64,000 bases of DNA from Candidatus Nanohaloarchaea archaeon (GTDB lineage Archaea > Nanohalarchaeota > Nanosalinia > Nanosalinales > Nanosalinaceae): positions 32,001 through 96,000 of the forward strand of contig JACOQA010000002.1 in NCBI GenBank assembly GCA_014297435.1, written 5' to 3'. Positions 41,344 to 55,219 of this stretch are shown here, one piece after another (the stretch's first letter is position 1; each line of letters starts with the position of its first letter). A program made the position numbers and the translations under genes. The notes under the pieces are model-generated. The model was not told the origin of the DNA, searched no databases, and worked only from the letters and a program-made list of their open reading frames with translations.

Positions 41344-42366
41344 ATGGACACCGAGGAGCGCAAACAACTGGTCCTGAGAAATACTACCGAAATCGTTACA
41401 GAAGAAGAACTTGACGAAGTTCTGGAAAAAGATAGTCCAACCACTTATGTAGGCTATGAGACCTCGGGTCCTGTACACCTCGGACACTGGGCATCCATAA
41501 GAAAACTGAACGATCTTCAAAAGGCAGGTTTCGACCTCAAAGTTCTCTTCGCAGATCTTCACACATACTTGAACAAGAAAGGCGAGGAGGAGTGGATCCA
41601 GACCATGACTGAGTACTGGGAAGCCACGTTCAAGGCCACAGGGCTTGACGCAGAGTTCGTCCGTGGCAGAGAGTTCCAGGAAGAGACAGAATACTTCCAT
41701 GACGTCCTCGAAATGTCGAAAGAAACCACGATTAACAGAGGGCAGCGTTCGATGGCGGAAGTTGCTTCAGGCGAAGAAGACAGCCAAAGCATTTCACAGA
41801 TCGTTTACCCGTTGATGCAAGCACTGGATATCGAATATCTTGATGTCGATCTATCTATGGGTGCGACCGATCAGAGAAAGATCCACATGCTAGCCAGGGA
41901 AGCACTGCCAAAAGTCGGTTACGACAAGCCGGCATGCCTGCACCACCCGCTGGTCGTGTCTCTACAGGGAACCGAGAAGATGAGTAGCTCTAAGCCAGGC
42001 ACCATGTTCCCTCTACATGCCTCCGAGGAAACAGTGAAGGAAAGGATCAAGGACGCCTACTGTCCTCAAGGCGAAATCGAGGACAACCCGGTAATCCAGA
42101 TCACACAGTTCCATATCTTCGGCGACGACGAAGAACTTGAGATAGAAAGACCGGAAGAGTACGGCGGAAACATCCACTACTCGAACCAGGAAGAGCTTGA
42201 GGAAGACTTCGAATCCGGCGAACTACACCCACAGGACCTGAAAAACTCGGTTGCCGACCACATCGCCGAGAAACTGGAACCGGTAAGGCAGAAGTTCAAA
42301 GATAATCCAGAGCTTCTGGACTGTCTGGAGGAGATCGGGCACGAGAAGCCGGATTACGTCAAATAG
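41344..42366 (+). CDS. tyrS: Tyrosyl-tRNA synthetase
   Basis: YVGYETSGPVHLGH, YPLMQALD, DQRKIHMLARE, KMSSS, LHPQDLK. Confidence 0.97.
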   Translation: MDTEERKQLVLRNTTEIVTEEELDEVLEKDSPTTYVGYETSGPVHLGHWASIRKLNDLQKAGFDLKVLFADLHTYLNKKGEEEWIQTMTEYWEATFKATGLDAEFVRGREFQEETEYFHDVLEMSKETTINRGQRSMAEVASGEEDSQSISQIVYPLMQALDIEYLDVDLSMGATDQRKIHMLAREALPKVGYDKPACLHHPLVVSLQGTEKMSSSKPGTMFPLHASEETVKERIKDAYCPQGEIEDNPVIQITQFHIFGDDEELEIERPEEYGGNIHYSNQEELEEDFESGELHPQDLKNSVADHIAEKLEPVRQKFKDNPELLDCLEEIGHEKPDYVK

Positions 42367-43140: not shown

Positions 43141-43234
43141 ATGAAGGGTGGACGTTTTTCCAACAAAAGGTAGAATCGAAGCTGTAAAACCTGTTCTAGA
43201 AAAAGCTTTCTTCACAAGTGGTCTGTATGCTTGA
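43141..43234 (+). other. Micro-ORF cassette copy 4 (MKGGRFSNKR*, 43141-43173; +1 frame open to TGA 43234, overlapping the serS ATG)
   Basis: ATG AAG GGT GGA CGT TTT TCC; same motif as the three minus-strand copies. Confidence 0.45.
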
Positions 43235-44495
43235 TATCGAACTTTTCCGAAACAATCCCGAGAAGATTAAGGAGTCGGAGAAACGCCGCGACAAAGAACC
43301 TTCAAAGGTAGATAAGGTTGTAAAGACCGATGAGGAATGGCGTGAAAAGCTCCAGGAACTCGATAAGTTAAGACAGGAAAGAAATACTGTAGGCGATGAA
43401 ATAGCTTCGCTTAAACAAGAGGGTGAGGAAGCTTCCGAGAAGATCGAAAGAATGCAGGAAGTGAAAGAGAAGATATCTGAATTGGAGGAAGAAGTTGAAG
43501 ATCTCAAAGAGGAAAGAGATGAACTTCGTTACGAAATCGGTAATATCCTCCATGAATCCGTTCCTAAAGGCATGGATGAAGAAGATAACGTAGAGGAGAG
43601 AACTTGGGAGCCTGAGAATGGGAAGGACGAGGATTCCAGACTGGCAGCCGATATTATCGAAGAAAACGATTTAGTTGAGACAGAGAAGGCTGCAGAACTG
43701 GCAGGAGAAAGAGCTTACTACCTGAAAAAAGACTTGTTCCGCTTGAACCAGGCCTTGATCCAGTTCTCGATGGACCTTTTGAGCGAGAAAGGTTTCACAC
43801 CGATGCAGACACCTTACATGCTAAAGCACGAGCCTATGGCGGCAGCAGCCGAGCTCGAGGACTTTGAAGAACAGCTATACAAGATAGAAGATGAGGACAA
43901 GTACCTTATCGCTACTTCCGAACAGACCTTGGCTACTTTCCATAAGGACGATATCCTGCTTCCTGACGAGTTTCCGAAAAAGTACGCAGGATTTTCAACC
44001 AACTTCAGGCAGGAAGCCGGCAAACACGGACAACAAACCAGAGGCATCTGGAGAGTCCACCAATTCGAGAAAGTGGAGCAGTACATCTTCTGCAAACCCG
44101 AAAATTCGTGGGAGCTCCACGAGGAACTGCTTGATAACGCGGAAGAAGTTATGCAGGAGCTTGGACTTCCTTACCGCGTTGTGAACGTCTGTACTGGCGA
44201 TATGAATGATAATGCCGCGAAGAAGTACGATATCGAGGTCTGGAGACCTCCAATCGGCGAGTACGGAGAGGTCGTCTCGTGCTCTAACTGTACCGACTTC
44301 CAAGCCAGAAAAGTAAACGTCAGGATTCGCGGAAGCGATGAAAATCATGTAGCACATACATTAAACGCTACAGCAGTCGCAACCTCAAGGATCATGACAG
44401 CAATTATAGAGAACAATCAGGAAGAGGAAGGAGTAAGAATTCCTGAACCGCTCCAAAACTACATGGGCGGACAAAAGTACATAGAGACAGTTTAG
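43227..44495 (+). CDS. serS: Seryl-tRNA synthetase
   Basis: MLDIELFR, N-terminal coiled coil, LIATSEQ, FRQEAG, RVHQFEKVE, EVVSCSNCTDFQAR, HTLNAT. Confidence 0.97.
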   Translation: MLDIELFRNNPEKIKESEKRRDKEPSKVDKVVKTDEEWREKLQELDKLRQERNTVGDEIASLKQEGEEASEKIERMQEVKEKISELEEEVEDLKEERDELRYEIGNILHESVPKGMDEEDNVEERTWEPENGKDEDSRLAADIIEENDLVETEKAAELAGERAYYLKKDLFRLNQALIQFSMDLLSEKGFTPMQTPYMLKHEPMAAAAELEDFEEQLYKIEDEDKYLIATSEQTLATFHKDDILLPDEFPKKYAGFSTNFRQEAGKHGQQTRGIWRVHQFEKVEQYIFCKPENSWELHEELLDNAEEVMQELGLPYRVVNVCTGDMNDNAAKKYDIEVWRPPIGEYGEVVSCSNCTDFQARKVNVRIRGSDENHVAHTLNATAVATSRIMTAIIENNQEEEGVRIPEPLQNYMGGQKYIETV

Positions 44496-44779
44496 GCGCT
44501 GTGGGAGATTTCTCCGACCTTGCAATCCTCCTCTATCTTTTCTCCACCACAGCTTTCGTTTTCCGGAGCCGAAAGCAAAGCCATCAACTGAGTGTCCCTC
44601 AAACCTTTACCAGAGGAATTTTCTAGAGCATTCATAACGTCTTCTCTAAGATCCATCTCTTCATAATGTTCTGTATAGAAATCCTTCATCCCTTCTAGTT
44701 CTCTTCCGGTGTATTGACCTGTTTGACTTAGCTTCTGACTGAAAACATCGTAGGTCTCTATCTCGAAGTATTGGGACAT
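44492..44779 (-). CDS. Hypothetical small acidic protein
   Basis: 95-aa ORF with its own TTATAAA about 29 nt upstream. Confidence 0.55.
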   Translation of the reverse strand: MSQYFEIETYDVFSQKLSQTGQYTGRELEGMKDFYTEHYEEMDLREDVMNALENSSGKGLRDTQLMALLSAPENESCGGEKIEEDCKVGEISHSA

Positions 44780-44821
44780 GCTAACGTACCTGCTTCAATC
44801 TGAAGATTTATAAGAGATTGA

Positions 44822-45112
44822 CTAGTTTCCATCGCCGAACTCCCCCAGAGGGATCTCTGATGAGCCAAGATAATCAAAGGAATGTTCGTAATTCAGACCT
44901 CCATCAGCGACAGTTTCCTGATTTTCCTCTTCAAGCATCTCTGACTGGAAACCGTCCATCCCAAGCTGCTCGATATAATCCGGATCTTCGATTCCATAAG
45001 CTTCATCGCCCTCAACCATCAAATCGTCCTCTTTACTGGATTCGATATAGCCTTCAGGGTCTTGAACGATTGGAACTTCCGGATCTCTTCCTATCCTAGG
45101 ACAGTAATCCAT
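44822..45112 (-). CDS. Small acidic protein with TVADGG motif
   Basis: 96 aa; start overlaps the leader-peptide stop (TAATG); SD-like GGAGAGGGT. Confidence 0.65.
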   Translation of the reverse strand: MDYCPRIGRDPEVPIVQDPEGYIESSKEDDLMVEGDEAYGIEDPDYIEQLGMDGFQSEMLEEENQETVADGGLNYEHSFDYLGSSEIPLGEFGDGN

Positions 45113-45186
45113 TATAAACCCTCTCCAGATGTTTTTTCAGGTTTTGCGATGCGGCACCGTATTGTTGTGTGGTTGTGTGTTGTCAT
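45112..45186 (-). other. Thr/His-rich leader peptide MTTHNHTTIRCRIAKPEKTSGEGL*
   Basis: Read by hand; TAATG coupling to the 45112 gene; counterpart at 54884-54964. Confidence 0.55.
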
Positions 45187-45219
45187 ATCGAGTAGAACCT
45201 CGAAAAGAGAATTATTGGT

Positions 45220-45386
45220 TTAATGCAGCACTGCCACATTCACTGCGGCAGCGGAGAACATTTTAATTGAATGTTTAATTGAGGAGATCTGAGAAAACTT
45301 AGAGCAGAAGCTTCCGGGACTCAAGCACAAAACGTCCACCCTTGATTCCGCTCATATCCTAACAAAGTTCAGAAGACAGTTATATA
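45220..45386 (-). other. Promoter plus micro-ORF cassette copy 1 (MSGIKGGRFVLESRKLLL*, 45355-45299; +1 frame 45339-45220)
   Basis: TATATAA about 28 nt upstream of ATG 45355; AAG GGT GGA CGT TTT GTG C. Confidence 0.6.
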
Positions 45387-45400
45387 GTTTAGGACGGTTT

Positions 45401-46606
45401 CTACCAGACCATCAGTGAGTGCTCATCCCTTACAAGATCCTCATCCCATTTTTCAGGAACATTTTCAGGAACAAGTTTCCTGAGCTCCTCTTGATTCACT
45501 TCACCCAGAAGTCTTTTTCGCTCCTCTTTCATCTGTCCGGGTCTGTTTCTTATTGCGTCACGATCAGGCTCACCGTCAAAGCTTCCTCTAACGGCGTTAC
45601 CCAGTATGTGCGCCATGTCGTTGACGTCCTCGCCATTGATCCTCATGTCGTTATCGGAGTAAAGGATGAACTCGAGATCCGGATTAAATACGTATCTCCC
45701 GTCCCCGTCTGCCTCAACTAGGTATTCAGGAGCGCTCCTATCAATATGACCGAGCAAGCCAAGTCCATTGAGGGTTGCGGCGTGGCGACCCCACATCTCC
45801 GCGTCGTTCTTAGAGATACCCATACTATCAACAGGCTCTGACCATGAGTGAAGTATTCCAACATCAAGGTTCGATTTTTCATAACCTCTGTTTCTCGTTT
45901 TCGGTTCTTTGCTGTCTACCCATAATTGTTCAGGTCTTGTGAGACGTGTGAGTCCAGGATGTATTTGTCCTAATTCATCGTGTACGCCTTCGTCTCTATC
46001 GAGTGCTGTTCTCAGTCCTACTTCCTGTATCCAGCCTTGTTCTCCGTTTTCTATTTGACCGTTAGTGACGTCGTAGTTTCCTTCACCGAATACCTGTTGA
46101 AGGTTGGAAAGATCGCCGGCGTCTAGAGAGCTTCGGGTTATAAGGTCAGTATCATATGATCGGGCGACGCGTATTCCTATGTACTCATTGTCATCCGAAA
46201 CTGCGTATGCTGCACTTGGAGGCTGCTTTATTCCTTCAGGATCGAAATCTTCTCTAAAGAATATTTCAAACTCTTCATCCGGACCTTCTTCTGGCTCCAC
46301 CGCCAGTTTGACATCTAGCTCGTCTCTTTTTTCGTTGTATTCCTCCCAGAGCTGTTTCTGGTCTGGTTTCATCCGGGTACCTGTATTAGTGTTTCGCCCC
46401 ATGCTTCCTGAAGCCATGTATGAATTGCCCGAACGACCGCCATCGGATAGATCCTCTACAAGTTCATAAACAGGCTCGTGGACTATATCGAACATGTCTA
46501 GGACTGACTGCGGTTCGTCATCCACGTACACTTGGATGTCCTCAATGCGGCTTATATCGTAAGAATTCACTTCCCCCTCCCCGTCATAGCTACTGGCGAG
46601 TGACAC
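45401..46606 (-). CDS. Atypical protein-kinase-like (APH/Bud32-like) protein
   Basis: WGRHAATLNGLGLLGHIDRSAPEYLV...VFNPDLEF aligns by eye to G..LA.LH..G..HGDL...N.LV...IDxE. Confidence 0.5.
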   Translation of the reverse strand: MSLASSYDGEGEVNSYDISRIEDIQVYVDDEPQSVLDMFDIVHEPVYELVEDLSDGGRSGNSYMASGSMGRNTNTGTRMKPDQKQLWEEYNEKRDELDVKLAVEPEEGPDEEFEIFFREDFDPEGIKQPPSAAYAVSDDNEYIGIRVARSYDTDLITRSSLDAGDLSNLQQVFGEGNYDVTNGQIENGEQGWIQEVGLRTALDRDEGVHDELGQIHPGLTRLTRPEQLWVDSKEPKTRNRGYEKSNLDVGILHSWSEPVDSMGISKNDAEMWGRHAATLNGLGLLGHIDRSAPEYLVEADGDGRYVFNPDLEFILYSDNDMRINGEDVNDMAHILGNAVRGSFDGEPDRDAIRNRPGQMKEERKRLLGEVNQEELRKLVPENVPEKWDEDLVRDEHSLMVW

Positions 46607-46742
46607 TTATATCACTTCCGGCATCTTCAGTATGGATTTCCAAAGACCTGATAGAAGACTGCGAGTTAACCTTGCAGAAAGCATCCACCTTTTATTGTGG
46701 TGTAGCGCATACTTTATAGCGTTCAAACTCAGAATTTATAAA
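46590..46742 (-). other. Promoter plus micro-ORF cassette copy 3 (MRYTTIKGGCFLQG*, 46710-46666; +1 frame 46688-46590)
   Basis: TTTATAAA about 28 nt upstream of ATG 46710; AAA GGT GGA TGC TTT CTG C. Confidence 0.6.
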
Positions 46743-46808
46743 AGGACGTGGAGTCAGCGCCTCTAAAACCAGTATGGATTTAAGTGAGTTCATGTCTCAT
46801 GGAAGGGT

Positions 46809-48857
46809 ATGGAAACAACGGTCATGGTCGGGGAGAAGCCCAAAGTCGCCTCCCGGATCGCCAACGCCCTCGGAAACTACGACACCAAGACCAACCGAGG
46901 GGTCAAGAACTACGTAATCAAGACAGATGAGAGAAAGATAATCATAGCACCTGCCGTAGGCCACATATTCAACCTCGACCAGATCGCCGACAACTGGGAC
47001 TACCCTGTATTCGACGTAGAATGGAAGCCAACATTCGAAACTTCCGACTCGGCCGACTACATGAAGAAATACTACAACAACCTGAAAGACCAGCTGGAAA
47101 AGGCTGACACCTACATCAACGCGTGCGACTTCGACCTTGAAGGCTCTGTTATCGGATACAACGTTATCAAACACTTGACTGGTGCCGATGAAGAAAGAAT
47201 CGAACGCATGAAGTTCTCGACACTGACTCCTTCCGACCTACAGGAAGCATTTGATAACCTGGAGGATTTTGACGCCGGAATGACAGAAGCCGGAATAACA
47301 AGACACATTCTCGACTACTACTACGGTATCAACGTTTCCCGTGCACTGATGAAAGCGGTTAGAGATAACGACCGTTACAAGACTCTTTCTACAGGACGTG
47401 TGCAGGGTCCGACACTTAAGATCTTGGCGGACAGAGAAAAAGAAATACAGGAGTTTGAACCGGATCCTTACTGGGAGCTTTACCTAAAACATGCGGAGTT
47501 TGACGCTCAGTGGGAGGAAGACGAGGACAGGATCTGGGACCAAGAAACAGCGAACGACAAGTTCAACAAGGTATACGGAGAAACCGAAGCAGAAGTCACA
47601 AACGTGAAGGTAAACAACTATACGCACAAGCCACCGATACCTTTCAACCTGACAGGACTACAGAGCGAGGCCTCATCACAGTTCCGTATAAGCCCAAAGA
47701 AGACGCAGTCGATCGCGCAAACACTTTACGAAAACGGGCTTATCTCTTATCCTAGAACCGAGTCACAGAAACTGCCGCCGAAGATCGGATACAAGAACAT
47801 ACTGAACAAGCTGAAGGGTCAGGAAAGCTACGATAATCTGGCGAAAAAAGTACTGAAAAAAGATAAAAACGACAACCTTTACACGACGCAGGGAAGTAAA
47901 GAAGACGACGCACACCCTGCAATCTATCCAACAGGAGAAAGCCCGGGCGGAAAACTGTCAAAACAGGAGAAAAAAGTCTATGATTTAATTGTAAAACGTT
48001 TCTTCGCCGTATTCGGCAAACCAGCCAAACGTCAATCCCTTACCTTCACTCTCGACGTTAAGGAAGAAGAGTTCAAGGCCAAGTCAAAGGTTACAAAGAA
48101 GAGGAACTGGTACGAGCTCTACGATCCATACGTTAAAGTGGATTCGGCCGATCTCCCGGACATGGAGGAAGGCCAGACACTCCAGGTAGAAGACTTCGAA
48201 CTTGTTGACAAAGAAACGCAGCCACCTAACCGTTACAGCCAGTCAAAGATTGTCAACGAGCTTGAGAAACGAGAACTAGGTACAAAAGCGACACGTGCCG
48301 ACACCGTAGACCGCCTTTACGACAGGAACTACATCGAAGAGGAGCCTATCGAAGTAACGGACCTGGGACTTGCGATCGTAAACACTCTAGAGGACTACTG
48401 TGGCAACATCGTCTCCGAAGAGCTTACACGCGAATTCGAGGAAAAGATGCAGGAAATAAGAGAGCAGAAAAACACGAAAGAAGAAGTTCTGGAAGAGGCA
48501 AGAAACGAGTTAGGAGATATACTCGAAAAGTTCAAGGAGAAACAGAAACAGATTGGTTCAGAGCTTGTCGACACAATCGACTCCGAAAGAGAACGCAGAA
48601 GAAGACTAGGTCCATGCGATATCGAGGATTGTGACGGCACCCTAAAAATAATCAAGGCAAACGGCTCAAAATTCGTAGGATGCTCAAACTACCCTGACTG
48701 CGAAAACACATACCCATTACCGAACAACGGAGATATAAAGTCGACAAACGAGGTCTGCGAGGAATGCGGAACACCTAAGATCTTCGTAAGCAGGAAGAAA
48801 GGAAAAGACTACACGATGTGCCTATTTCCGGATTGTCCTACAAAAGATTCTTGGTAG
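46809..48857 (+). CDS. topA: DNA topoisomerase I (type IA)
   Basis: EKP, ACDFDLEG (TOPRIM), STGRVQGPTL, ISYPRT, AHPAIYPT, C-terminal Zn ribbons. Confidence 0.97.
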   Translation: METTVMVGEKPKVASRIANALGNYDTKTNRGVKNYVIKTDERKIIIAPAVGHIFNLDQIADNWDYPVFDVEWKPTFETSDSADYMKKYYNNLKDQLEKADTYINACDFDLEGSVIGYNVIKHLTGADEERIERMKFSTLTPSDLQEAFDNLEDFDAGMTEAGITRHILDYYYGINVSRALMKAVRDNDRYKTLSTGRVQGPTLKILADREKEIQEFEPDPYWELYLKHAEFDAQWEEDEDRIWDQETANDKFNKVYGETEAEVTNVKVNNYTHKPPIPFNLTGLQSEASSQFRISPKKTQSIAQTLYENGLISYPRTESQKLPPKIGYKNILNKLKGQESYDNLAKKVLKKDKNDNLYTTQGSKEDDAHPAIYPTGESPGGKLSKQEKKVYDLIVKRFFAVFGKPAKRQSLTFTLDVKEEEFKAKSKVTKKRNWYELYDPYVKVDSADLPDMEEGQTLQVEDFELVDKETQPPNRYSQSKIVNELEKRELGTKATRADTVDRLYDRNYIEEEPIEVTDLGLAIVNTLEDYCGNIVSEELTREFEEKMQEIREQKNTKEEVLEEARNELGDILEKFKEKQKQIGSELVDTIDSERERRRRLGPCDIEDCDGTLKIIKANGSKFVGCSNYPDCENTYPLPNNGDIKSTNEVCEECGTPKIFVSRKKGKDYTMCLFPDCPTKDSW

Positions 48858-48861
48858 CGGC

Positions 48862-50347
48862 TTAAATAATCTTGTAACGCTCCTCTAGATTCCTAATCTC
48901 CTCTTTGCTATGCTTGGAAAACTTTGGTTCGTATCTGTAGAAAGTTGAGAAAAAACGGACTAAGGTCCAGTTCTTGGAGCAATATCTGTCTTCATTCCGC
49001 CCGATTTCGGTTTTAAAAACATTTTCAATCTCTGAGGCTACGCTCTCATTCTTCTTTCTTATTCTAAGTTCGTTTCCTGTACACAGTATATTTGAGGCGA
49101 TACCATCTAATCTTGAGTTAGGTTTTAATGGCAATCTAATTTCAGAATTTTCGTTACCTCTAACCCCTACTTTGTATCTGAGTTGGTTTTCTCCCATTAG
49201 CCGATGTGTTTCCGCCTTTCCGAAAAGTTCAACAATTTTCGAAACCGGTGCTGCATACTTATCTTCCTCCCAAGTGTAGACCTGATGTCTGGATATCTCT
49301 AAGTTTGAGGCTATCTGACGCTGATAAAGCCCTCTTTCTTCTCTCAAGCCCTGATATTATCGCCTAAACCTTCACCCTAAGATCCTCTACCTGATGAGGT
49401 CAAAGAAGTCTTTGAAGAAGTTTGACTTCTTTCTACCTCGATAAACGTAAGTTCGGGAACCTTTTTCCAGCTTCCTTATCATTTCTTTTTTCTTACGCGG
49501 ATGAGAGAACCCCCACATTATTACAGAAATTTCCGAAGTCCCTAGGACTGAACCTCAGAAGATAGGACCCAGGTTTCCGGATCTCACCTTCGATATTGAT
49601 TCCTTGCATATCGTTCTGACATGTTTCAAGAAAAGACCTAGTAGCTGAAGAGAGCGAAACTCTATAACTCTCCTGAGGCATACACCCATCCGTGTCAAAT
49701 ACTCCTCTCCAGTAGGCGTTAGATAGGTCTCCAGAGTCAAAAATTTCTGGGCGAGATAGTTCTCCTTTCTTGTAGGATTTAGGTAGGTTGAAACAGTGTC
49801 GGATGTATCGGCAGAACCATTTGTTAGCTATTTTAAGTTCGATTTTATTGCCTCTCTCGAGTATGCAGCATGTGCTTTCTGGTAAACCGAAGAGTTTCTG
49901 AACTAGTTCCTAGAGTTTCTCGATAAATTTTCTTGAGTCTTCGAGTTCTTCCGGCTTTCCTCCATCTACTACGCTCCATATGTTAGGTCCGTTGAATCCG
50001 CCATCTCCTGCTGCTACGCCTGCAAAGTATGCAAATTTCTCGGTTTTGAGATCCGAGTTTTTTCTTGGCGGATCGAGTTTTGAGGAGTTTCGTGAGCTGG
50101 TTATGTATTCTATTTCTTGGGACATCGTTTTTTCGTTGATGAGTTCTGAGAGGATGTCCATAGACCATGTCTGTTTTTCTTTACATCTTTGCATGGTCTG
50201 AGAAGTAATATTATGTTCTTCTGGATCTAAAATGTTGTATATTTCCTTGTTTCTTTCTTTGCCTATCTTAGCGTAGGGTATAGACTTTCGGCTTTCTTCT
50301 TTGCCGTTAATAAGGGCTTTAGACAAGTTGATGATTTCCTCTGGCAT
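48862..50347 (-). pseudogene. Disrupted double-motif LAGLIDADG endonuclease with C-terminal XRE-type HTH
   Basis: FAYFAGVAAGDGG; in-frame TAG at 49912-49910, reading through to YWRGVFDTDG; extra G in the G5 run near 49512 restores VGFSHPRKKK; more lesions at 49400-49350; HTH LREERGLYQRQIASNLEISRHQVYTWE. Confidence 0.8.
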
Positions 50348-50434
50348 GTAGATTTATTACTGGGCTTCTTTTGAAAAGTGGAGCGGACGGAGTTCCGTTA
50401 GTTCCGGTAGAAAAAGAACAAAAACAGTTATTTA

Positions 50435-50731
50435 TCATTTAGATGACTGTTCGCCATCGTGAAGTTTTTCTCTTTCTAGGTCGATTGCGGTATCGATCAA
50501 GAGACGTCCTAGCTGCCTTCCTCTTTCCCGGGACATGCCTTTTTCTTCGAACCTGTCCGCGAACTGCTCCATGACCTGTTCCTCCCGATTCTCATCCTTT
50601 ATCTCTATATCGTTTTTCTCTTTATACTCGATGACTTTGAGGACTTCTTCCATCCTGTCATCAATTTTCTCAACTATCTCATCGTTTATACTGTCGATGT
50701 TGCCGCGGGCATCTTCCAGAGGATTCGCCAT
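50435..50731 (-). CDS. aroQ: Chorismate mutase (AroQ type), copy 2
   Basis: LEDARGNIDSINDEIV...R...YK...IKDENRE. Confidence 0.85.
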   Translation of the reverse strand: MANPLEDARGNIDSINDEIVEKIDDRMEEVLKVIEYKEKNDIEIKDENREEQVMEQFADRFEEKGMSRERGRQLGRLLIDTAIDLEREKLHDGEQSSK

Positions 50732-50757
50732 AATAGGTTATGATTGAACGGTCTTTT

Positions 50758-51615
50758 TTACTTACGGACTTCATCGCTCAAATGCTCTATTACCAGATCT
50801 GTTCTTTCCTGCGCATCTTCAAGATCGAACTCTTCGCCCAACTCCTCAAACTTTTCTGCGAAAGCCTCTTCATCCCCTATTATTTCCTGTATCTCCTCAG
50901 CGGACTCCTTGAATCGTTCACGTACTTTTTCGTTCTCAGGGTTTTCGGCCTGTATAGAGCCGTAAAGTCCGGACTTCTGATTCAGCATTCTTGCTGTAAG
51001 ATCGGTAATTAACTGGTAGACCGGAGAAGAATATTCTGACATCTCCGAACCCGACATATCTGACTTCCTGATGGTTTCGGAAACCACGAGCTCTGAGAAA
51101 TGCATCAATCCCTGTACAAGACTCATCGCCTTATCATGCGACTCAGCATCTGTGACATGTATATGTGCGTCTTTCCGGTTCCAGAACTCTTCCATAGCCG
51201 TCCATTTCTTCCCTTCAATCGGAGTTAAGACAATTTTCTGACCTTCAACCGAGTTCGAAGGGGCATACATCGGATGCATCCCCAGAACTTCATCAGAATA
51301 CTGTTTCATAGCCTCTGTCGGCTTCTTCTTAACGCTTGTAATATCGCAGAACAAGGTATCGTCCGAAATATGTGAACCGATCTCTTCAATAACATCAACA
51401 GTTACAGCGATAGGAACTGCCACGATTACGACATCCGCATCTTTTACTATCTCGGTGTTTTCTCCAAAATCCCATCCATGTTTATTTGCCACTTCTTCGG
51501 CCTCTTCAAGACTTTCACCGGAGATAGTTATCTCGTTGTGTTCTTCGAGAAGTTTTCCTAGGTGTTGGCCGAACTGACCGGTTCCGCCGACAATAACGAT
51601 TTTTTCGTCTATCAT
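50758..51615 (-). CDS. tyrA: Prephenate dehydrogenase
   Basis: IVGGTGQFG, DITSVK, GMHPMYAP, HDKAMSLVQGLMH. Confidence 0.93.
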   Translation of the reverse strand: MIDEKIVIVGGTGQFGQHLGKLLEEHNEITISGESLEEAEEVANKHGWDFGENTEIVKDADVVIVAVPIAVTVDVIEEIGSHISDDTLFCDITSVKKKPTEAMKQYSDEVLGMHPMYAPSNSVEGQKIVLTPIEGKKWTAMEEFWNRKDAHIHVTDAESHDKAMSLVQGLMHFSELVVSETIRKSDMSGSEMSEYSSPVYQLITDLTARMLNQKSGLYGSIQAENPENEKVRERFKESAEEIQEIIGDEEAFAEKFEELGEEFDLEDAQERTDLVIEHLSDEVRK

Positions 51616-52745
51616 AGTTCCTCCTCCAGGATGTCGAACGCTTTGTTGATTTCTTCTTTAGTTGTTGAGCCGAAACATATTCTGACATTTTGATCGCTTT
51701 CCGGACCCATAGGTTCGCCAGGAACCATCGCAACACCTTCCTCGATCATATCAAGACAGAAATCCCAGGAATCCTCTTTAACCTCGGGAAATGCATAGAT
51801 CGCTCCTTCAGGCATCTGAAAATCCCATCCTAGCTCGTTCATTCTTTCGACAAGCAGGTCTCTTCTTTCCTCGTAAACCTGCCTCATCTCTTCAACGTGT
51901 GAATCATTTTCCAGTGCTTCAAGCGCTGCAATCTGCGAGGGTTTTGGCGGACAGGCAGTTGCTCCTCTCGCGACTTTCGCAAAGTTCTCTATATCATCTT
52001 CTCTTCCTACCACCCAGCCTATTCTCCAGCCAGTCATCGCATGATTCTTCGAAACTGAACCGATCACTACAGAGTTTTCACAGTATGCTGCAGGCGAATA
52101 ATGAGTCTTTCCATAATTCAGGCGATGGTATACCTCATCGGAAAGAAGCATGACGTCATTTTCTTCACAGAACTTTCCGATGTTCTTCGCTTGTTTTTCT
52201 GTTAGCATTCTTCCTGTCGGGTTTGAAGGCGTGTTAACCACGACAAGCTCTGCATCTTTCATTTCCTGCTTTGCTTCGTCTCTAAGTTCTTCGCCATCAA
52301 AGTACTCTACTTGTGTCCACTGATTGCCGTTAACCTCACTCATCAATTTGTACGGACCCCAGCAAGGATCGTTAAATACAGCTTCTTTGTTCGAGTCAAG
52401 CATTGCCGCAAAAACAGAGTAAATCGCTCCCATTCCGCCTGTAGCAACCATAACGTTTTCTTTAGAAAGCTCGGCGTTTTTCGGACCAGTTTTTTGCTTT
52501 AATCCTTCTTCCTCAACAATGGCTTTTCTCAATTTTTCAATACCTGTTACTGATGTATATCCCTGTTTCTGTTCGACTATTCCGTCTGCTGCAGCCTTTT
52601 TAACATGTTCAGGCGTGTCAAAGCTTGGCTGACCGATATCAAATCGGACACATTTATCTTGTTCTCTTGCTTTTTCCGAAATCTTTCTGATCGAAAGCTC
52701 TATGTTTTCAATTCTTTCACGCATCTTTACCACCGAATGATCCAA
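51612..52745 (-). CDS. Class I/II PLP aminotransferase (aspartate/aromatic)
   Basis: IGQPSFDTP, NTPSNPTG, SDEVY, SVSKNHAMTGWRIG, GAIY. Confidence 0.93.
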   Translation of the reverse strand: MDHSVVKMRERIENIELSIRKISEKAREQDKCVRFDIGQPSFDTPEHVKKAAADGIVEQKQGYTSVTGIEKLRKAIVEEEGLKQKTGPKNAELSKENVMVATGGMGAIYSVFAAMLDSNKEAVFNDPCWGPYKLMSEVNGNQWTQVEYFDGEELRDEAKQEMKDAELVVVNTPSNPTGRMLTEKQAKNIGKFCEENDVMLLSDEVYHRLNYGKTHYSPAAYCENSVVIGSVSKNHAMTGWRIGWVVGREDDIENFAKVARGATACPPKPSQIAALEALENDSHVEEMRQVYEERRDLLVERMNELGWDFQMPEGAIYAFPEVKEDSWDFCLDMIEEGVAMVPGEPMGPESDQNVRICFGSTTKEEINKAFDILEEEL

Positions 52746-53493
52746 GGACTTTAACCTCGGCGTAAGTTTCCAGACATTTTTTCGTGTTCTCGAATTTCTC
52801 AGAGTTCTGGTCGGCCTCCGCCTCTATGTAGAAAAAGTAGTTTCCAAGACCATCTTTAGTCGGCCGAGACTGGATGTACGCCAAGTTAATTCCGTGTCCA
52901 GAAAAACATGAAAGCATCGACCCTAGAAGACCCGGACGATCCTCACCCGGCTCCACTATCATCGATGTCTTACTGCCTTCACTTTGTTTACCGTTTAAGA
53001 TGAAGAACCTGGTAGTGTTTGACTCACGATCCTGTACGCTTTCCTCCAGAATGTTTAGATCGTTTAGTTGTGCTGCAAGCTTGGAGCAGATCGCGGCTTC
53101 ACCTTCTTCTATTTCCTCAGCGGCTTTGGCAGTGCTTGAAGACTCTTTTTTCTCCCAGCCATTTTCTCCAATTATCTTTTTTGACTGTGTCAGTGCTTGT
53201 GGATGAGACCGAACTTTCTCGACATCGTTAATGTTTCCTTCTTTTGAGGCTAGTACGTGATCGATCTCGACCTTTACCTGTCCTGTAACCTCAACATCTC
53301 TTTCTCTCAACAAGTCGATCGATTCTGTTACTCCACCTCCAAGAGAGTTTTCGAACGGTATTACTGCTGCCTTGGCATCTGATTCAACCGCCTCTGTTAT
53401 AGTGGAGACCGGAACCGGTTCATAGTTGGAGAAGTATTTTTCTGCAGCTTGATGGGTGTATGTGCCTTCAGGTCCTAGGAACGCTACTTTCAT
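52717..53493 (-). CDS. pheA: Prephenate dehydratase with ACT domain
   Basis: AFLGPEGTYT, PFENS, SHPQALTQ, NTTRF, DRPGLL, INLAYIQSRP. Confidence 0.95.
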   Translation of the reverse strand: MKVAFLGPEGTYTHQAAEKYFSNYEPVPVSTITEAVESDAKAAVIPFENSLGGGVTESIDLLRERDVEVTGQVKVEIDHVLASKEGNINDVEKVRSHPQALTQSKKIIGENGWEKKESSSTAKAAEEIEEGEAAICSKLAAQLNDLNILEESVQDRESNTTRFFILNGKQSEGSKTSMIVEPGEDRPGLLGSMLSCFSGHGINLAYIQSRPTKDGLGNYFFYIEAEADQNSEKFENTKKCLETYAEVKVLGSFGGKDA

Positions 53494-53759
53494 TACATAT
53501 CCTCTTCCTGTAAATCAACAGCAGTATCTATCAGTAGTTCAGCGAGTTCCCGACCTTTTTCTCGAGGTAGGTCTTCTTTTTCGAAAAGCTTCTCGAACTG
53601 ATCCTTAACAACTTCCTCTCTGCCTTCATCCTTGATTTCCATGCCGTTCTGTTTCTTGTATTCGCCGATCTCCTCGACAACGTTCATCCTGCGGGAAACT
53701 GCGTCAACGATCTCGGTATTAACCCTGTCAATCTCCTTCCGGTAATCCTCAAGATCCAT
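53493..53759 (-). CDS. aroQ: Chorismate mutase (AroQ type), copy 1
   Basis: LEDYRKEIDRVN...RR...YK...IKDEGRE...LQ; promoter TTTATAAAA and SD AGGTGA upstream. Confidence 0.9.
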   Translation of the reverse strand: MDLEDYRKEIDRVNTEIVDAVSRRMNVVEEIGEYKKQNGMEIKDEGREEVVKDQFEKLFEKEDLPREKGRELAELLIDTAVDLQEEDM

Positions 53760-53800
53760 GTCTTTGATTCACCTTCGAAGCGTTTTATAAATGGCGGAGG

Positions 53801-54382
53801 TTATGGGGTGTTGAAATGCCCCATGTAGGGAGTATCCTCCGTATCAACATCTTCCATCTCTCTGTGACGAGTTCCATCATAAGTCGGAAAACCGCCATCA
53901 GTAACGACTGCTTTCTCCGATTCTTCAGTAACTTGGATCTCCCACGACGATTTCTCGCCATATTCTTTCCCCAGTTCCTGTCGGGTTTCGAACACCGTGT
54001 CTCGAACCTCAGAACGTTCACCGGCAATAACTACCTCATCGTCGAACTCGAAAACTTCAACATTCTCAGGTGCAGCTTTTTCGGCTTCATCCTTGCCGCT
54101 TTCAAATGTTCGTTGATACTCGAAACCGTTCTGGAAAACTTTTGGAAATGCTTCACGGAAACCTTCGATTCCTGCACCCTGGTCATAAACTTCTATGGAG
54201 TCGTCATAGTCGACTACTTTTATCCTGCCGTGATCGCTGTTGACATGTATATCTCTTCCGTTGGCGTCCCCTGGATAGTTCCAGGACCGGGCGGTTTCTA
54301 CAATCTCTTCCTCGTAACTTTCAGGCACCTCAACTTCTGTCCCGACATGGGTTGGCGAAAAGTCGAATCTTTTTGCAGCCAT
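53801..54382 (-). CDS. Hypothetical acidic protein with VVTDGG motif
   Basis: 193 aa; TAATG coupling to the upstream gene. Confidence 0.7.
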   Translation of the reverse strand: MAAKRFDFSPTHVGTEVEVPESYEEEIVETARSWNYPGDANGRDIHVNSDHGRIKVVDYDDSIEVYDQGAGIEGFREAFPKVFQNGFEYQRTFESGKDEAEKAAPENVEVFEFDDEVVIAGERSEVRDTVFETRQELGKEYGEKSSWEIQVTEESEKAVVTDGGFPTYDGTRHREMEDVDTEDTPYMGHFNTP

Positions 54383-54879
54383 TATTCCATCACCGGGAAG
54401 CCGTCGTAGCTGTCAAAGGTGTTCGGTCTGTAGGTTTCTCCGTGGAACCAGCGTTCGATCTGTTTTGCCTGCTGAGGGTTCATATTACTGCCGATAACAT
54501 CATCAAGAAACTCATTTGTCTGATCGTAAACTTCATCAACAGCTGATTCGATCTCCATCATCTCATCCCTGTTAAAGGCGTACTCCTGAGAGATAGCCTC
54601 ACTACTTCCTTCAACGAATCTTTCTCCCGGGACTTCTAATGTGTCGAAGAACTCGCCATATTTTTGAGAGGGTTCTACATCTTCCTCCGGTTCGGCCAAT
54701 TTTTCCCACCAGATCTGACCTGAAGGATCTACATCATACACAGGATCTTCTCCTCCGTCCGTAACGGTTCTGTCGACTCTGCCGTTTACGGTTTCGAGCT
54801 CTCCTTCAGCTGTTTCCTTGAAGGTCATATGTGGAGCCTCTACTCTTTCCTTGATGCTGGAATCGCCTCCAGTATACAT
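54382..54879 (-). CDS. Hypothetical acidic protein with TVTDGG motif
   Basis: 165 aa; SD-like AGAGAGGT inside the leader peptide. Confidence 0.7.
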   Translation of the reverse strand: MYTGGDSSIKERVEAPHMTFKETAEGELETVNGRVDRTVTDGGEDPVYDVDPSGQIWWEKLAEPEEDVEPSQKYGEFFDTLEVPGERFVEGSSEAISQEYAFNRDEMMEIESAVDEVYDQTNEFLDDVIGSNMNPQQAKQIERWFHGETYRPNTFDSYDGFPVME

Positions 54880-54883
54880 GCTC

Positions 54884-54964
54884 TCAATACCTCTCTGGTT
54901 TTTCTGAATTAGTTTTGGGTTTTTCTCTCATGCCGTGTGTTGTGTGGTGTGTGTTGTGTGTCAT
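54884..54964 (-). other. Thr/His-rich leader peptide MTHNTHHTTHGMREKPKTNSEKPERY*
   Basis: Read by hand; stop 4 nt before ATG 54879; counterpart at 45112-45186. Confidence 0.55.
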
Positions 54965-55030
54965 GATTGTATCACGAATACGAAATGGCGTTTTCTACGG
55001 TTTTACCGTGAGAAAAGCCTTTTTTGGAAT

Positions 55031-55219
55031 TTACAGCAGAATCAGTAGCAGCAGAAGTAGCAGTAAAATTGAAGATAATACGAAGTCAGTAGAAACCGAA
55101 ATTTTAGTTGAGAAGATCCGTGAGAAAGCTGGGGCTCGACCCGTCTTAAAGTTGCAGAACCCGTCCACCCTGAGTTGCGGACATCATCGTAACTATGAAT
55201 AGACAACAGAATTTATAAA
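55031..55219 (-). other. Promoter plus micro-ORF cassette copy 2 (MMSATQGGRVLQL*, 55187-55146; +1 frame 55168-55031)
   Basis: TTTATAAA about 28 nt upstream of ATG 55187; CAG GGT GGA CGG GTT CTG C. Confidence 0.6.

Follow-up and report, generated by a model that had tools for sequence, protein, structure and literature searches.

How can a very short open reading frame (ORF), repeated with the same few in-frame codons at dispersed places on an archaeal chromosome, be of use to the genes behind it? The question is raised by four intergenic regions in a stretch of 64,000 nucleotides (nt) from Candidatus Nanohaloarchaea archaeon (GenBank assembly GCA_014297435.1, contig JACOQA010000002.1, positions 32,001 to 96,000 of the forward strand), which we call the window and whose numbering is used throughout. 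A first-pass annotation of the window had pointed out four ATGs, at 45355(-), 55187(-), 46710(-) and 43141(+) (copies 1 to 4 in this order), each of which opens an ORF of 10-18 codons that holds GGT GGA YGN NTT in frame and is overlapped by an open +1 frame. The ATGs, the peptides, the in-frame box and the +1 lengths were all borne out by the sequence (Table 1). The annotation took the sites for a cassette like that of bacterial prfB, gated by a "hungry" sense codon in the ribosomal A site, and missed what is the key to the system: the codon behind the motif specifies the amino acid of the aminoacyl-tRNA synthetase that is encoded downstream. We think it probable, with due reserve, that the cassettes are leader sensors read by the ribosome, in which slow decoding of the cognate codon would trigger a prfB-like +1 shift and termination-reinitiation would then start the synthetase. 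In the following, citations by PMC or bioRxiv number refer to the pertinent passages of these sources, and G, L and f numbers are our labels for genomes, loci and families.

The codon behind the box and the enzyme downstream

In the window, the distance from the ATG to GGTGGA always keeps the frame (15, 18, 21 and 6 nt in copies 1 to 4), and a TATA-like element begins 31-32 nt 5' of each of the four ATGs. Such an element had been noted before the three minus-strand copies; the plus-strand copy 4 also has one, a weaker TTCTAAAAC, with the geometry that is seen, along with stronger TATA boxes, in the other copies and in relatives' leaders for seryl-tRNA synthetase (SerRS). Is the motif more than chance? 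GGTGGAYGNNTT occurs four times in the window, where 0.11 are expected and none of 100 shuffles came to four. In the genome of 998,768 bp it was found 14 times, and its reversed control 0 times. The pattern was set after the four window sites had been seen, and the independent support comes from the nine other genomic sites and from relatives. A weight matrix built from the sites scores 13 intergenic sites at 21-32 bits and the next best at 16.8 bits, and the fourteenth exact match, which is intragenic, gets 12.7 bits. Twelve of the 13 intergenic sites have an in-frame ATG upstream with no stop in between (at 6 nt four times, at 12 and 15 nt once each, and at 18, 21 and 30 nt twice each), and the thirteenth is a tandem copy that follows another copy. 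A repeat or mobile element was considered and rejected, as only about 20 nt are common to the sites and the orphan targets described below have no paralogues by BLASTP.

Across the leaders, the frame-0 peptide has the consensus M...[K/Q]-G-G-[R/C]-F-X, where X is the amino acid of the downstream synthetase. The sensor position X is the frame-0 codon that comes after the box, a 3-nt spacer and TTT (sometimes GTT or CCY), the last being the proposed P-site codon. In the genome under study, TCC precedes serS, ACC precedes thrS, GGA precedes glyS, GTA precedes valS, and TGG, in two tandem leaders, precedes trpS; the five enzymes score above the NCBIfam equivalog cut-offs, and Pfam agrees.

Does this match hold among relatives? 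The five proteins were followed through 30 relatives of the same family together with the genome under study, the start of each orthologue being taken as the in-frame ATG nearest to that given by tblastn alignment to our protein. A leader was accepted if it had a box [CG]GTG[GA]N, YRY as the next codon, an in-frame ATG within 60 nt and at most 70 codons from stop to stop in frame 0. The 28 SerRS loci gave 21 leaders, all with TCC or TCT (one locus without upstream sequence, six without a leader by the filter); the 30 loci for threonyl-tRNA synthetase (ThrRS) gave 16, all with ACC, ACT or ACA (one and 13, respectively); the 30 for glycyl-tRNA synthetase (GlyRS) gave 20, of which 19 have GGA and one GGG (three and seven); and the 28 for valyl-tRNA synthetase (ValRS) gave 16, with GTA in 15 and GTG in one (two and ten). 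Synonymous changes of the sensor therefore follow the enzyme, as between TCC and TCT or among ACC, ACT and ACA. Seven of the 36 filter-negative loci hold a canonical leader that had been dropped by the length filter, and all seven are cognate, which brings the agreement for Ser, Thr, Gly and Val to 80 of 80. A box-free scan of the same 36 loci returned only these canonical leaders and two coding-like chance hits, and no leader whose box is free of GTG. At the serS locus of G024 (L027) the leader stretch consists of N letters, and this locus stands outside the leader score. Upstream of trpS, all of the 15 sites with box, YRY and TTT or GTT carry TGG.

Two wider samples point the same way. An unbiased survey of eleven Pfam synthetase families in five genomes, with 86 synthetase genes, gave 32 candidates before 30 genes, and 31 of the 32 are cognate: Cys, Phe, Leu and Arg once, Lys and Tyr twice, Trp three times, and Gly, Ser, Thr and Val five times each. 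The single exception, located 748 nt before leuS, has a stop codon where the sensor should be and was discarded as no leader. Loosening the filter brought in His before hisS and another Trp, and the identity of the Leu, His, Lys, Tyr, Arg, Cys and Phe-alpha enzymes was borne out by NCBIfam. Before the Ala, Asp, Glu, Ile, Met and Pro synthetase genes of the five genomes no leader was found. The argS candidate of our genome is atypical, having GAA as P-site codon and a +1 frame that ends 48 nt before the gene, and is possibly an Arg leader. The second sample consists of 60 regions picked by eye from 150 of the 214 strict-motif matches, away from the Ser, Thr, Gly, Val and Trp loci already examined. 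They hold 65 leader instances (two counted twice), cysS and thrS leaders from two other families of the order among them; the first synthetase downstream is cognate in 34 (33 distinct) and non-cognate in none, and the other 31 have no synthetase within 3.3 kb or up to the contig end (Ile 8, Leu 2, Val 2, Trp 16, Phe 1, Ser 1, Thr 1). Ile sensors stand before threonine ammonia-lyase in three genomes, and in G021 the Ile leader is followed by the threonine ammonia-lyase gene and then by an ORF that, going by its N-terminal sequence alone, resembles prephenate dehydratase. Across the surveys, no leader was found before a non-cognate synthetase. A random one-to-one pairing of 12 classes would be correct once in 12 factorial (about 5 x 10^8), and chance pairing of the 11-12 amino-acid classes is not a serious option. 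The three sets of cognate counts lend strong support to the idea of a prfB-like cassette gated by a hungry sense codon.

Some leaders carry two modules (Ile then Leu, or Val then Leu) in one frame-0 ORF, 21-33 nt apart, always at a multiple of three and sharing the same +1 frame (L353, L354, L360, L398, L409, L186 and L378; for example MSKATKGGRF-I-GRLEKGGRV-L-QER). Other arrangements were met in passing. About 230-270 nt 5' of thrS, upstream of the Thr leader, three loci (L060, L063 and L068) show a conserved GGTGGA TAT CCT GTC, with Val at the sensor position and ATG or GTG directly before the box. A Lys-sensor leader of our genome (G000:C1:121275 (-), L004) lies directly before endonuclease V. 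In G018 (L202) the order is Lys leader, class-II lysyl-tRNA synthetase (LysRS) and endonuclease V. Class-II LysRS, the class searched for, was not found in our genome by tblastn, and the Lys leader there looks like the remnant of a locus from which lysS was lost or moved away.

How far does the family extend? Among the 70 genomes examined from the phylum, 57 have the strict 13-mer, with controls near zero: 46 of 49 in family f1, 8 of 8 in f4, 2 of 10 in f3, and 0 of 1 in both f2 and f5. Trp leaders occur also in f3 and f4, one Ile leader occurs in f2, and the motif is found in Nanohaloarchaea archaeon SG9 and Ca. Nanosalina sp. VS9-1. Some genomes of our own family, G016 and G012 among them, have no leaders at serS, thrS and glyS. 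Among 80 public GlyRS loci, 25 were grouped as nanohaloarchaeal, 22 by record name and three (L264, L276 and L291) by alignment shape, and five of the 25 have no upstream sequence. The Gly leader stands at 19 of the 20 assessable nanohaloarchaeal loci (named public genomes) and at 0 of the 55 haloarchaeal-type loci, four of which have incomplete upstream sequence. L264 (JBLGBK010000001.1) is filed under a metagenome-assembled genome of Colwellia polaris and holds a nanohaloarchaeal-type GlyRS with a canonical Gly leader; its contig is probably mis-binned. In families f2-f5 (L340-L352), GlyRS has about 44% identity to the query over the first 350 residues and no Gly leader, its open frames are mostly about 500-570 amino acids long (range 432-639), and it appears from these sequences to be a different form of GlyRS. 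The divergent neighbour still has Trp leaders, with synteny as in our genome.

The +1 frame and the box

If frame 0 carries the sensor, where does the +1 frame lead? In all of the 73 leaders that passed the filter, no stop interrupts it between the box and a point at most 17 nt before the synthetase ATG. Frame 0 is open to the start in 0 of 73 and frame +2 in 12 of 73, while mononucleotide shuffles of each spacer predict 17.5 of 73; the openness of the +1 frame is thus kept in orthologues beyond what shuffled spacers give. Its stop falls at -17 to +11 of the synthetase ATG in 73 of 73, typically as ATGA, ATGCTTGA or TAA-N2-ATG and also as TAAAAATG, with a box-to-start distance of 80-217 nt and little sequence conservation in the spacer, and frame 0 stops at least 47 nt 5' of the start in every one. 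This supports the proposal that the +1 frame gates the downstream gene. In the 21 SerRS leaders, the +1 stop lies at -5 to +11 of the serS ATG despite spacers of 80-210 nt. By eye, the second codon of serS, CTT or CTA, seems to covary with the phase of the spacer, by which the +1 stop is created. The serS leader of G008 (L014/L179) is a variant, GGTGAC TAC CCC TCT, with a spacer about 100 nt longer, a Ser sensor and the +1 stop at +4.

In Haloferax volcanii, genes that overlap in pairs depend strictly on each other for translation through termination-reinitiation, which needs an overlap or a gap of less than about 20 nt and is nearly abolished by a separation of about 20 nt (PMC6728339, PMC10666635). 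Measured by this limit, the +1 frame fits reinitiation in 73 of 73 leaders and frame 0 does not. As to the window, the earlier statement on the ends of the +1 frames is only partly right: in copies 1 and 2, where the frame had been said to end shortly before a second leader ORF, it ends 33 and 66 nt short of this small ORF, outside the distance for simple coupling.

In some members the +1 frame is longer than a spacer. That of the second trpS leader is a protein gene which begins at the box: in our genome, the +1 ORF encodes an acidic protein of 96 amino acids with no Met at all. The +1 ORF of G003 encodes a GNAT acetyltransferase of 228 amino acids (Pfam E = 3e-9), and GNAT is found in two other genomes too. 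Further box-starting +1 ORFs encode an inositol-monophosphatase-family protein and a protein of 710 amino acids with a PPDK_N domain. In most of the protein-coding +1 ORFs the first Met comes at least 85 residues in, or there is none; the exceptions with an early Met are the inositol-monophosphatase-family ORF (residue 6) and two ORFs of no assigned family (residues 36 and 52). Judging from these coding sequences, the +1 frame is translated in some members, as whole proteins that have no other start. The +1 peptides of the upstream Trp leader (L129-L148) end in ...ISS[IV]xxxSW across genera, and this conservation may only reflect the overlapping promoter of the second leader.

What could the box itself do? 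The 3' end of 16S rRNA in four relatives (G003, G008, G016 and G018) reads GGATCACCTCC plus A; in our own 99%-complete assembly the small-subunit rRNA gene was not found by regular expression or with RF01959, and the anti-Shine-Dalgarno sequence is the one read from the relatives. RGGTGR is able to pair with the UCCACU stretch of 16S rRNA, and at the box positions that face U a purine is found in 70 of 73 leaders (position -1) and in 73 of 73 (position 5), position 6 being free. The leaders hence have an internal sequence like a Shine-Dalgarno (SD) element, complementary to the 16S 3' end, as prfB-type sites do. The proposed use of AGGTGG as an SD at 29338 and 40463 also proved sound, AGGTGGA being located 10 and 7 nt before these ATGs. 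Genome-wide, GGTGA is modal at 6-7 nt before start codons, that is, 7-8 nt from GGTG, whereas in the leaders the GGTG core is 5 nt from the P-site codon (3 nt after the hexamer), or 2-3 nt closer than a real SD is to its start. Such spacing, shorter than that for initiation, is again of the prfB type, and eases the earlier worry that the SD lies too far off when compared with prfB; the register on the rRNA does differ from that of prfB.

Around the box the conserved block reads AAYSAAR-GGTGR-N-YRY-TTT. Conservation sets in about 8 nt 5' of the box and ends abruptly at the sensor codon, and this block would approximate the length of mRNA covered by a ribosome 5' of its A site. The box-proximal variable positions of the 73 leaders are Y-R-Y, which are the third, first and second positions of +1 codons, so the notion that variable bases fall mainly on third positions of the +1 frame is only partly right. 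The P-site codon is TTT in 64 of 73, and re-pairing in the +1 frame is full if the sensor starts with U or C and otherwise involves two of three bases.

The four copies of the window

The features of the four copies are listed in Table 1. Copy 4 lies before serS. A box with the appearance of a B recognition element and TATA box (BRE/TATA) inside its +1 ORF is kept in relatives, leader-less genomes included, and similar boxes are found about 30-45 nt before thrS and valS; from their position, they are probably second promoters that give leaderless synthetase mRNA. Just 5' of serS is the gene for tyrosyl-tRNA synthetase (TyrRS; 41344-42366 (+)), which has no leader in our genome. In G008, G019, G021 and several further relatives, tyrS comes after a Tyr-sensor leader with TAT or TAC. 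No tRNA genes were found in the window.

Table 1. Features of the four leader copies and of the genes behind them (window positions)
Feature	Position	Strand	Basis or remark
Copy 4, TATA-like element, putative promoter P1	43109..43117	+	32 nt 5' of leader ATG; sequence
Copy 4, frame-0 leader ORF MKGGRFSNKR, probably leaderless	43141..43173	+	ATG kept in 21/21 relatives' SerRS leaders
Copy 4, SD-like box GGTGGA	43147..43152	+	complementary to 16S 3' end (CACC + U) of four relatives
Copy 4, E-site codon CGT	43153-43155	+	directly after box
Copy 4, proposed P-site (shift) codon TTT	43156..43158	+	TTT in 64/73 leaders
Copy 4, sensor codon TCC (Ser), cognate to serS	43159..43161	+	TCC/TCT in 21/21 SerRS leaders
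Copy 4, +1 ORF, 28 codons	43148..43234	+	TGA overlaps serS codons 2-3 (ATGCTTGA)
BRE/TATA-like box inside +1 ORF, possible second promoter P2	43186..43206	+	about 30 nt 5' of serS ATG
serS, seryl-tRNA synthetase, gene behind copy 4 and presumably regulated by it	43227..44495	+	NCBIfam TIGR00414, 474 bits (cut-off 302); Pfam
Copy 1, TATA box TATATAA	45380..45386	-	31 nt 5' of leader ATG
Copy 1, frame-0 leader ORF MSGIKGGRFVLESRKLLL	45299..45355	-	box 45340-45335, P-site TTT 45331-45329
Copy 1, sensor GTG (Val)	45328-45326	-	box and GTG kept in same-genus G001, 78% regional identity
Copy 1, +1 ORF, 39 codons	45220..45339	-	ends 33 nt before next small ORF
Copy 1, second small ORF MTTHNHTTIRCRIAKPEKTSGEGL	45112..45186	-	stop overlaps ATG of 96-amino-acid gene (TAATG)
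Copy 1, putative target, very acidic orphan of 96 amino acids (D+E 29%)	44822..45112	-	no Pfam family, no paralogue
Copy 3, TATA box TTTATAAA	46735..46742	-	32 nt 5' of leader ATG
Copy 3, frame-0 leader ORF MRYTTIKGGCFLQG	46666..46710	-	box 46689-46684, P-site TTT 46680-46678
Copy 3, sensor CTG (Leu)	46677-46675	-	sequence
Copy 3, +1 ORF, 32 codons	46590..46688	-	ends inside or just before start region of 401-amino-acid gene
Copy 3, putative target, acidic orphan of 401 amino acids	45401..46606	-	no NCBIfam or Pfam family
Copy 2, TATA box TTTATAAA	55212..55219	-	32 nt 5' of leader ATG
Copy 2, frame-0 leader ORF MMSATQGGRVLQL	55146..55187	-	box 55169-55164, P-site GTT 55160-55158
Copy 2, sensor CTG (Leu)	55157-55155	-	G001 keeps box, GTT and CTG
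Copy 2, +1 ORF, 45 codons	55031..55168	-	ends 66 nt before second small ORF
Copy 2, second small ORF, Thr/His/Asn-rich, CA repeats	54884..54964	-	ends 4 nt before 165-amino-acid gene
Copy 2, putative target, acidic orphan of 165 amino acids	54382..54879	-	no Pfam family
Chorismate mutase, co-directional behind the 165-amino-acid orphan	53493-53759	-	Pfam
Prephenate dehydratase, co-directional	52717-53493	-	Pfam
Aminotransferase, co-directional	51612-52745	-	Pfam

Copies 1 to 3 precede acidic orphan genes. In copy 3, the +1 stop lies between two GTGs, one at 46606, which it follows at 14 nt, and one at 46570, which it precedes by 20 nt and which has an SD before it. The module of copy 2 with GTT and Leu recurs before leucyl-tRNA synthetase (LeuRS) in G018 and as the second module of tandem leaders. 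The second small ORFs of copies 1 and 2 are built from CA repeats and rich in Thr, His and Asn (MTTHNHTT..., MTHNTHHTTH...), and they might serve as a further step of coupling or as an enhancer without structure. Homologues of the 401-amino-acid protein are found in 6 of 30 relatives, none of them behind a leader, and in other genera no leader precedes the homologues of either the 401- or the 165-amino-acid orphan gene; these two leader-target pairs seem to be genus-specific.

How the leaders may work and what they resemble

How, then, might one codon control the gene behind it? The promoter would give rise to a transcript that begins at the short frame-0 ORF or close before it, and a ribosome translating frame 0 would reach a position in which TTT occupies the P site, the sensor codon the A site, and the box lies on the anti-SD. 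With ample cognate aminoacyl-tRNA, this ribosome would stay in frame 0 and stop 5-20 codons further on, at least 47 nt before the gene, and nothing would follow. When this tRNA is scarce, the ribosome would pause, held by pairing of the box with 16S rRNA at short spacing, and would slip by +1 on the TTT codon in its P site; slow decoding in the A site is what triggers +1 shifts in general (PMC5009743). The shifted ribosome would read on to the downstream start, terminate there and reinitiate, and more of the cognate synthetase would be made, a negative feedback. By this route the Ser codon of copy 4 would control serS. In members with a protein-coding +1 frame (GNAT, and the 96-amino-acid protein before trpS) the shift would give a trans-frame protein, and tandem modules that feed one +1 frame would act as an OR gate. 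Copies 1 to 3, with Val, Leu and Leu sensors, would induce the acidic orphan proteins under shortage of branched-chain amino acids, and copy 2 perhaps also the amino-acid biosynthesis cluster behind the 165-amino-acid gene.

Several points weigh against this scheme. Every box variant contains a GTG in the +1 frame, which would allow ordinary initiation without any frameshift. Leaderless synthetase mRNAs from the internal promoter-like boxes of serS, thrS and valS are likely; the leader probably adds inducible expression over a basal level. The P-site codon is not always slippery, being GTT, CCT, CCC, GCG or once GAA, and the pairing partner of the box is CACC, a part of the anti-SD other than that used in prfB. 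The +1 frames of copies 1 and 2 (33-66 nt) and of the argS candidate end too far from the next ORF for simple coupling. About half of the leaders in the sample of 60 regions (Ile, Leu, Val and many Trp) have no synthetase after them. The sensor codons are common and not rare, GGA for example making up 44% of Gly codons, and the idea of a rare-codon device was rejected on this ground. Orthologous leaders are related to each other and not independent, by which the raw counts overstate the statistics. Finally, the 5' end, the pause, the shift, the reinitiation and the direction of regulation are points that we infer.

The main rival takes up the first of these points and does without a frameshift: the +1 ORF would start at the GTG of the box, and a pause on the frame-0 upstream ORF would alter access to this GTG by occlusion, by a queue of ribosomes or by cleavage that makes a new 5' end. 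The first-pass annotation had already mentioned a GTG-initiated peptide family. GTG is indeed at box positions 2-4 of every leader, including those with GGTGGC, GGTGAA, GGTGAC, GGTGGT and CGTGGT, the +1 peptides begin with V/M-D-[VAIMT]-F in a conservative pattern, and whole proteins are encoded from the box GTG. However, a ribosome stalled at the sensor would cover this GTG, which is 8 nt 5' of the P site, and by our own reasoning shortage would then cut synthesis of the synthetase, a positive feedback that is the opposite of every known synthetase control. Moreover, no SD is usably spaced 5' of the GTG, as the purines abut it directly, and a start codon alone does not explain why a G at position 0 and a purine at -1, both outside the GTG, should be conserved. 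It is because of the covered GTG and the outer purines that we rank this alternative below frameshifting and regard it as unlikely, though it is still the strongest competitor.

Could the output be at the level of RNA? Translation of the +1 frame might shield the leader transcript from factor-dependent termination or decay (polarity), with reinitiation being secondary. The +1 frame spans the whole spacer to the gene, T-rich runs and promoter-like A/T boxes lie within it, and termination in frame 0 leaves at least 47 nt untranslated, all of which would suit such a role. On the other hand, the precise +1 stop at the start codon (ATGA, ATGCTTGA, TAAAAATG) suits reinitiation and would be superfluous for shielding, and no conserved terminator or antiterminator structure was seen in the ThrRS leaders, which were folded. 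As the main explanation we find shielding improbable; it still requires entry into the +1 frame, can coexist with a frameshift sensor and may contribute to its effect.

A T-box-like RNA that acts without ribosomes, in which uncharged tRNA would pair through its anticodon with the specifier and through its acceptor end with the GGTGG core, shares the specifier-codon logic, and the tRNA-binding core of T-boxes is also GGTGG (PMC2494555). Rfam, however, gave no T-box match, with nothing found in the whole window at the gathering threshold and, for the serS leader at E up to 10, only chance-level hits (a plant microRNA, a Listeria small RNA and U6). RNAalifold on 14 of the 16 ThrRS leaders, the only class folded, gave a consensus of -3.2 kcal/mol with 0 covarying pairs and no supported fold; L042, near-identical to L041, and L049, with a 190-nt spacer, were left out. 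A hairpin between an upstream CCAC and the box, seen by eye in copies 3 and 4 and the glyS leader, was dropped, since it is absent from the other copies. The codon is 6 nt from the box and has no stem of its own, box position 6 shows no change with the amino acid, and such an RNA would not account for the in-frame ATG or for the open +1 frame, so that we give this mechanism very little credence. Least credible of all, and rejected here also in the form of the DNA operator considered earlier, is a transcription-factor operator or promoter-proximal element about 46-50 nt 3' of the TATA box: the TATA-to-box distance is by eye fairly constant in several copies (44-51 nt), but frame and codon identity matter, as the ATG-to-box distance ranges from 6 to 54 nt and is always a multiple of three, the next codon tracks the enzyme through synonymous changes, and the motif is bound to one strand, in every case that of the gene.

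Which known systems does a frameshifting leader of this kind resemble? The bacterial prfB gene has an internal SD with shortened spacing, one spacer codon, a U-rich P-site codon and a UGA that is read by its own product. The leaders share with it the SD-like element, the single E-site spacer codon, the U-rich P-site codon, the slow A-site codon and the negative feedback as proposed, and some (GNAT, the 96-amino-acid protein before trpS) would likewise give a trans-frame fusion. Unlike the UGA of prfB, the A-site codon of the leaders is a sense codon that varies by gene and covers at least 11-12 amino acids; the regulated protein is not what the +1 frame of synthetase leaders encodes, as this frame ends at the start of the regulated gene; pairing of the box involves a different part of the anti-SD; and the leaders are archaeal, probably leaderless and without homology to prfB. 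The comparison is with prfB as described, prfB sequences being outside it.

Leader-peptide attenuators are found in bacteria before the trp, his, ilv and thr operons and, as pheM, before pheST. They and the present leaders have in common a short leader ORF with codons for the amino acid whose biosynthesis or charging genes follow, and the Ile+Leu and Val+Leu leaders, together with the Ile leader before threonine ammonia-lyase, recall the ilv leader. In contrast to attenuators, there is one sensor codon fixed beside a conserved block of 20 nt and no run of codons, and the apparent read-out is a change of frame with reinitiation and not termination of transcription. Of the two marks of an attenuator, the short leader ORF with a cognate codon is present and presumably translated, and the alternative terminator and antiterminator hairpins are absent from the ThrRS leaders, the ones folded.

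T-boxes resemble the leaders in serving a regulon of synthetases and amino-acid genes, in the single specifier codon that matches the ligase, in a preference among synonymous codons and in retargeting by one codon (PMC2494555). T-boxes are, however, long structured RNAs that bind uncharged tRNA without ribosomes, whereas the leaders have neither an Rfam match nor such structure, and frame and start codon matter for them. Against the T-box family RF00230, the match of specifier and ligase was found, which speaks of a mode of action and not of membership, and a match in covariance or structure was not. The leader family is a member of neither the prfB nor the T-box family, as defining features of both were tested for and not found.

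As for frameshifting proper, Ty1 (CUU_AGG_C) and antizyme also rely on a slow A-site codon that drives a +1 shift of the P-site tRNA (PMC5009743), and antizyme uses its +1 shift as a sensor (PMC8211752). Unlike these, which depend on one rare tRNA or on polyamines and yield a fusion protein, the leaders are built on a modular site with varied sense codons and mostly a separate downstream ORF. The coupled genes of Haloferax volcanii have, like the leaders, an upstream stop that overlaps the downstream start or lies within a few nt of it (PMC6728339, PMC10666635); the upstream unit there is a constitutive cistron, whereas here it would be the conditional +1 frame of a leader. In C. elegans zip-2, too, a defect of elongation leads to expression of a downstream ORF by a frameshift on existing mRNA, in this case in a eukaryote, in a single gene and under general elongation stress (PMC11831180).

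Taken together, we lean, if only slightly, to the opinion that nanohaloarchaea possess a codon-programmable ribosome sensor of single aminoacyl-tRNA pools, a counterpart of the T-box. A module of about 20 nt would have been copied before at least 11-12 synthetase genes, threonine ammonia-lyase and lineage-specific genes, with the sensor retargeted each time, with OR gates in tandem, and with an output by reinitiation or trans-frame fusion. If true, it would be the first regulatory programmed frameshift in cellular genes of archaea, and the first natural case in which hungry-codon frameshifting serves as a specific metabolic sensor. In the passages at hand, a recoding review of 2021 lists one programmed frameshift in archaeal cellular genes (PMC8211752), and a review of 2016 calls the natural role of hungry-codon frameshifting unclear (PMC5009743). 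Our full-text searches of the literature found no description of such leaders. If the model is right, orphan genes could be annotated by the amino acid whose shortage induces them, as has been done with T-boxes. The model would also be directly testable, since two co-cultures exist, the archaeon of the second being, as we take it, Ca. Nanohaloarchaeum antarcticus. These are the co-culture of Ca. Nanohalobium constans with Halomicrobium (PMC7443923) and that of a DPANN archaeon with its host (bioRxiv 10.1101/2023.02.24.529834). The module would further offer a compact retargetable part, of about 20 nt and one codon, for amino-acid-specific translational switches. To our knowledge, how archaea match the levels of their synthetases to the supply of amino acids is essentially unknown. 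If true, the leaders would be a new answer to this universal problem of regulation, found in symbionts that rely on the amino acids of their hosts.

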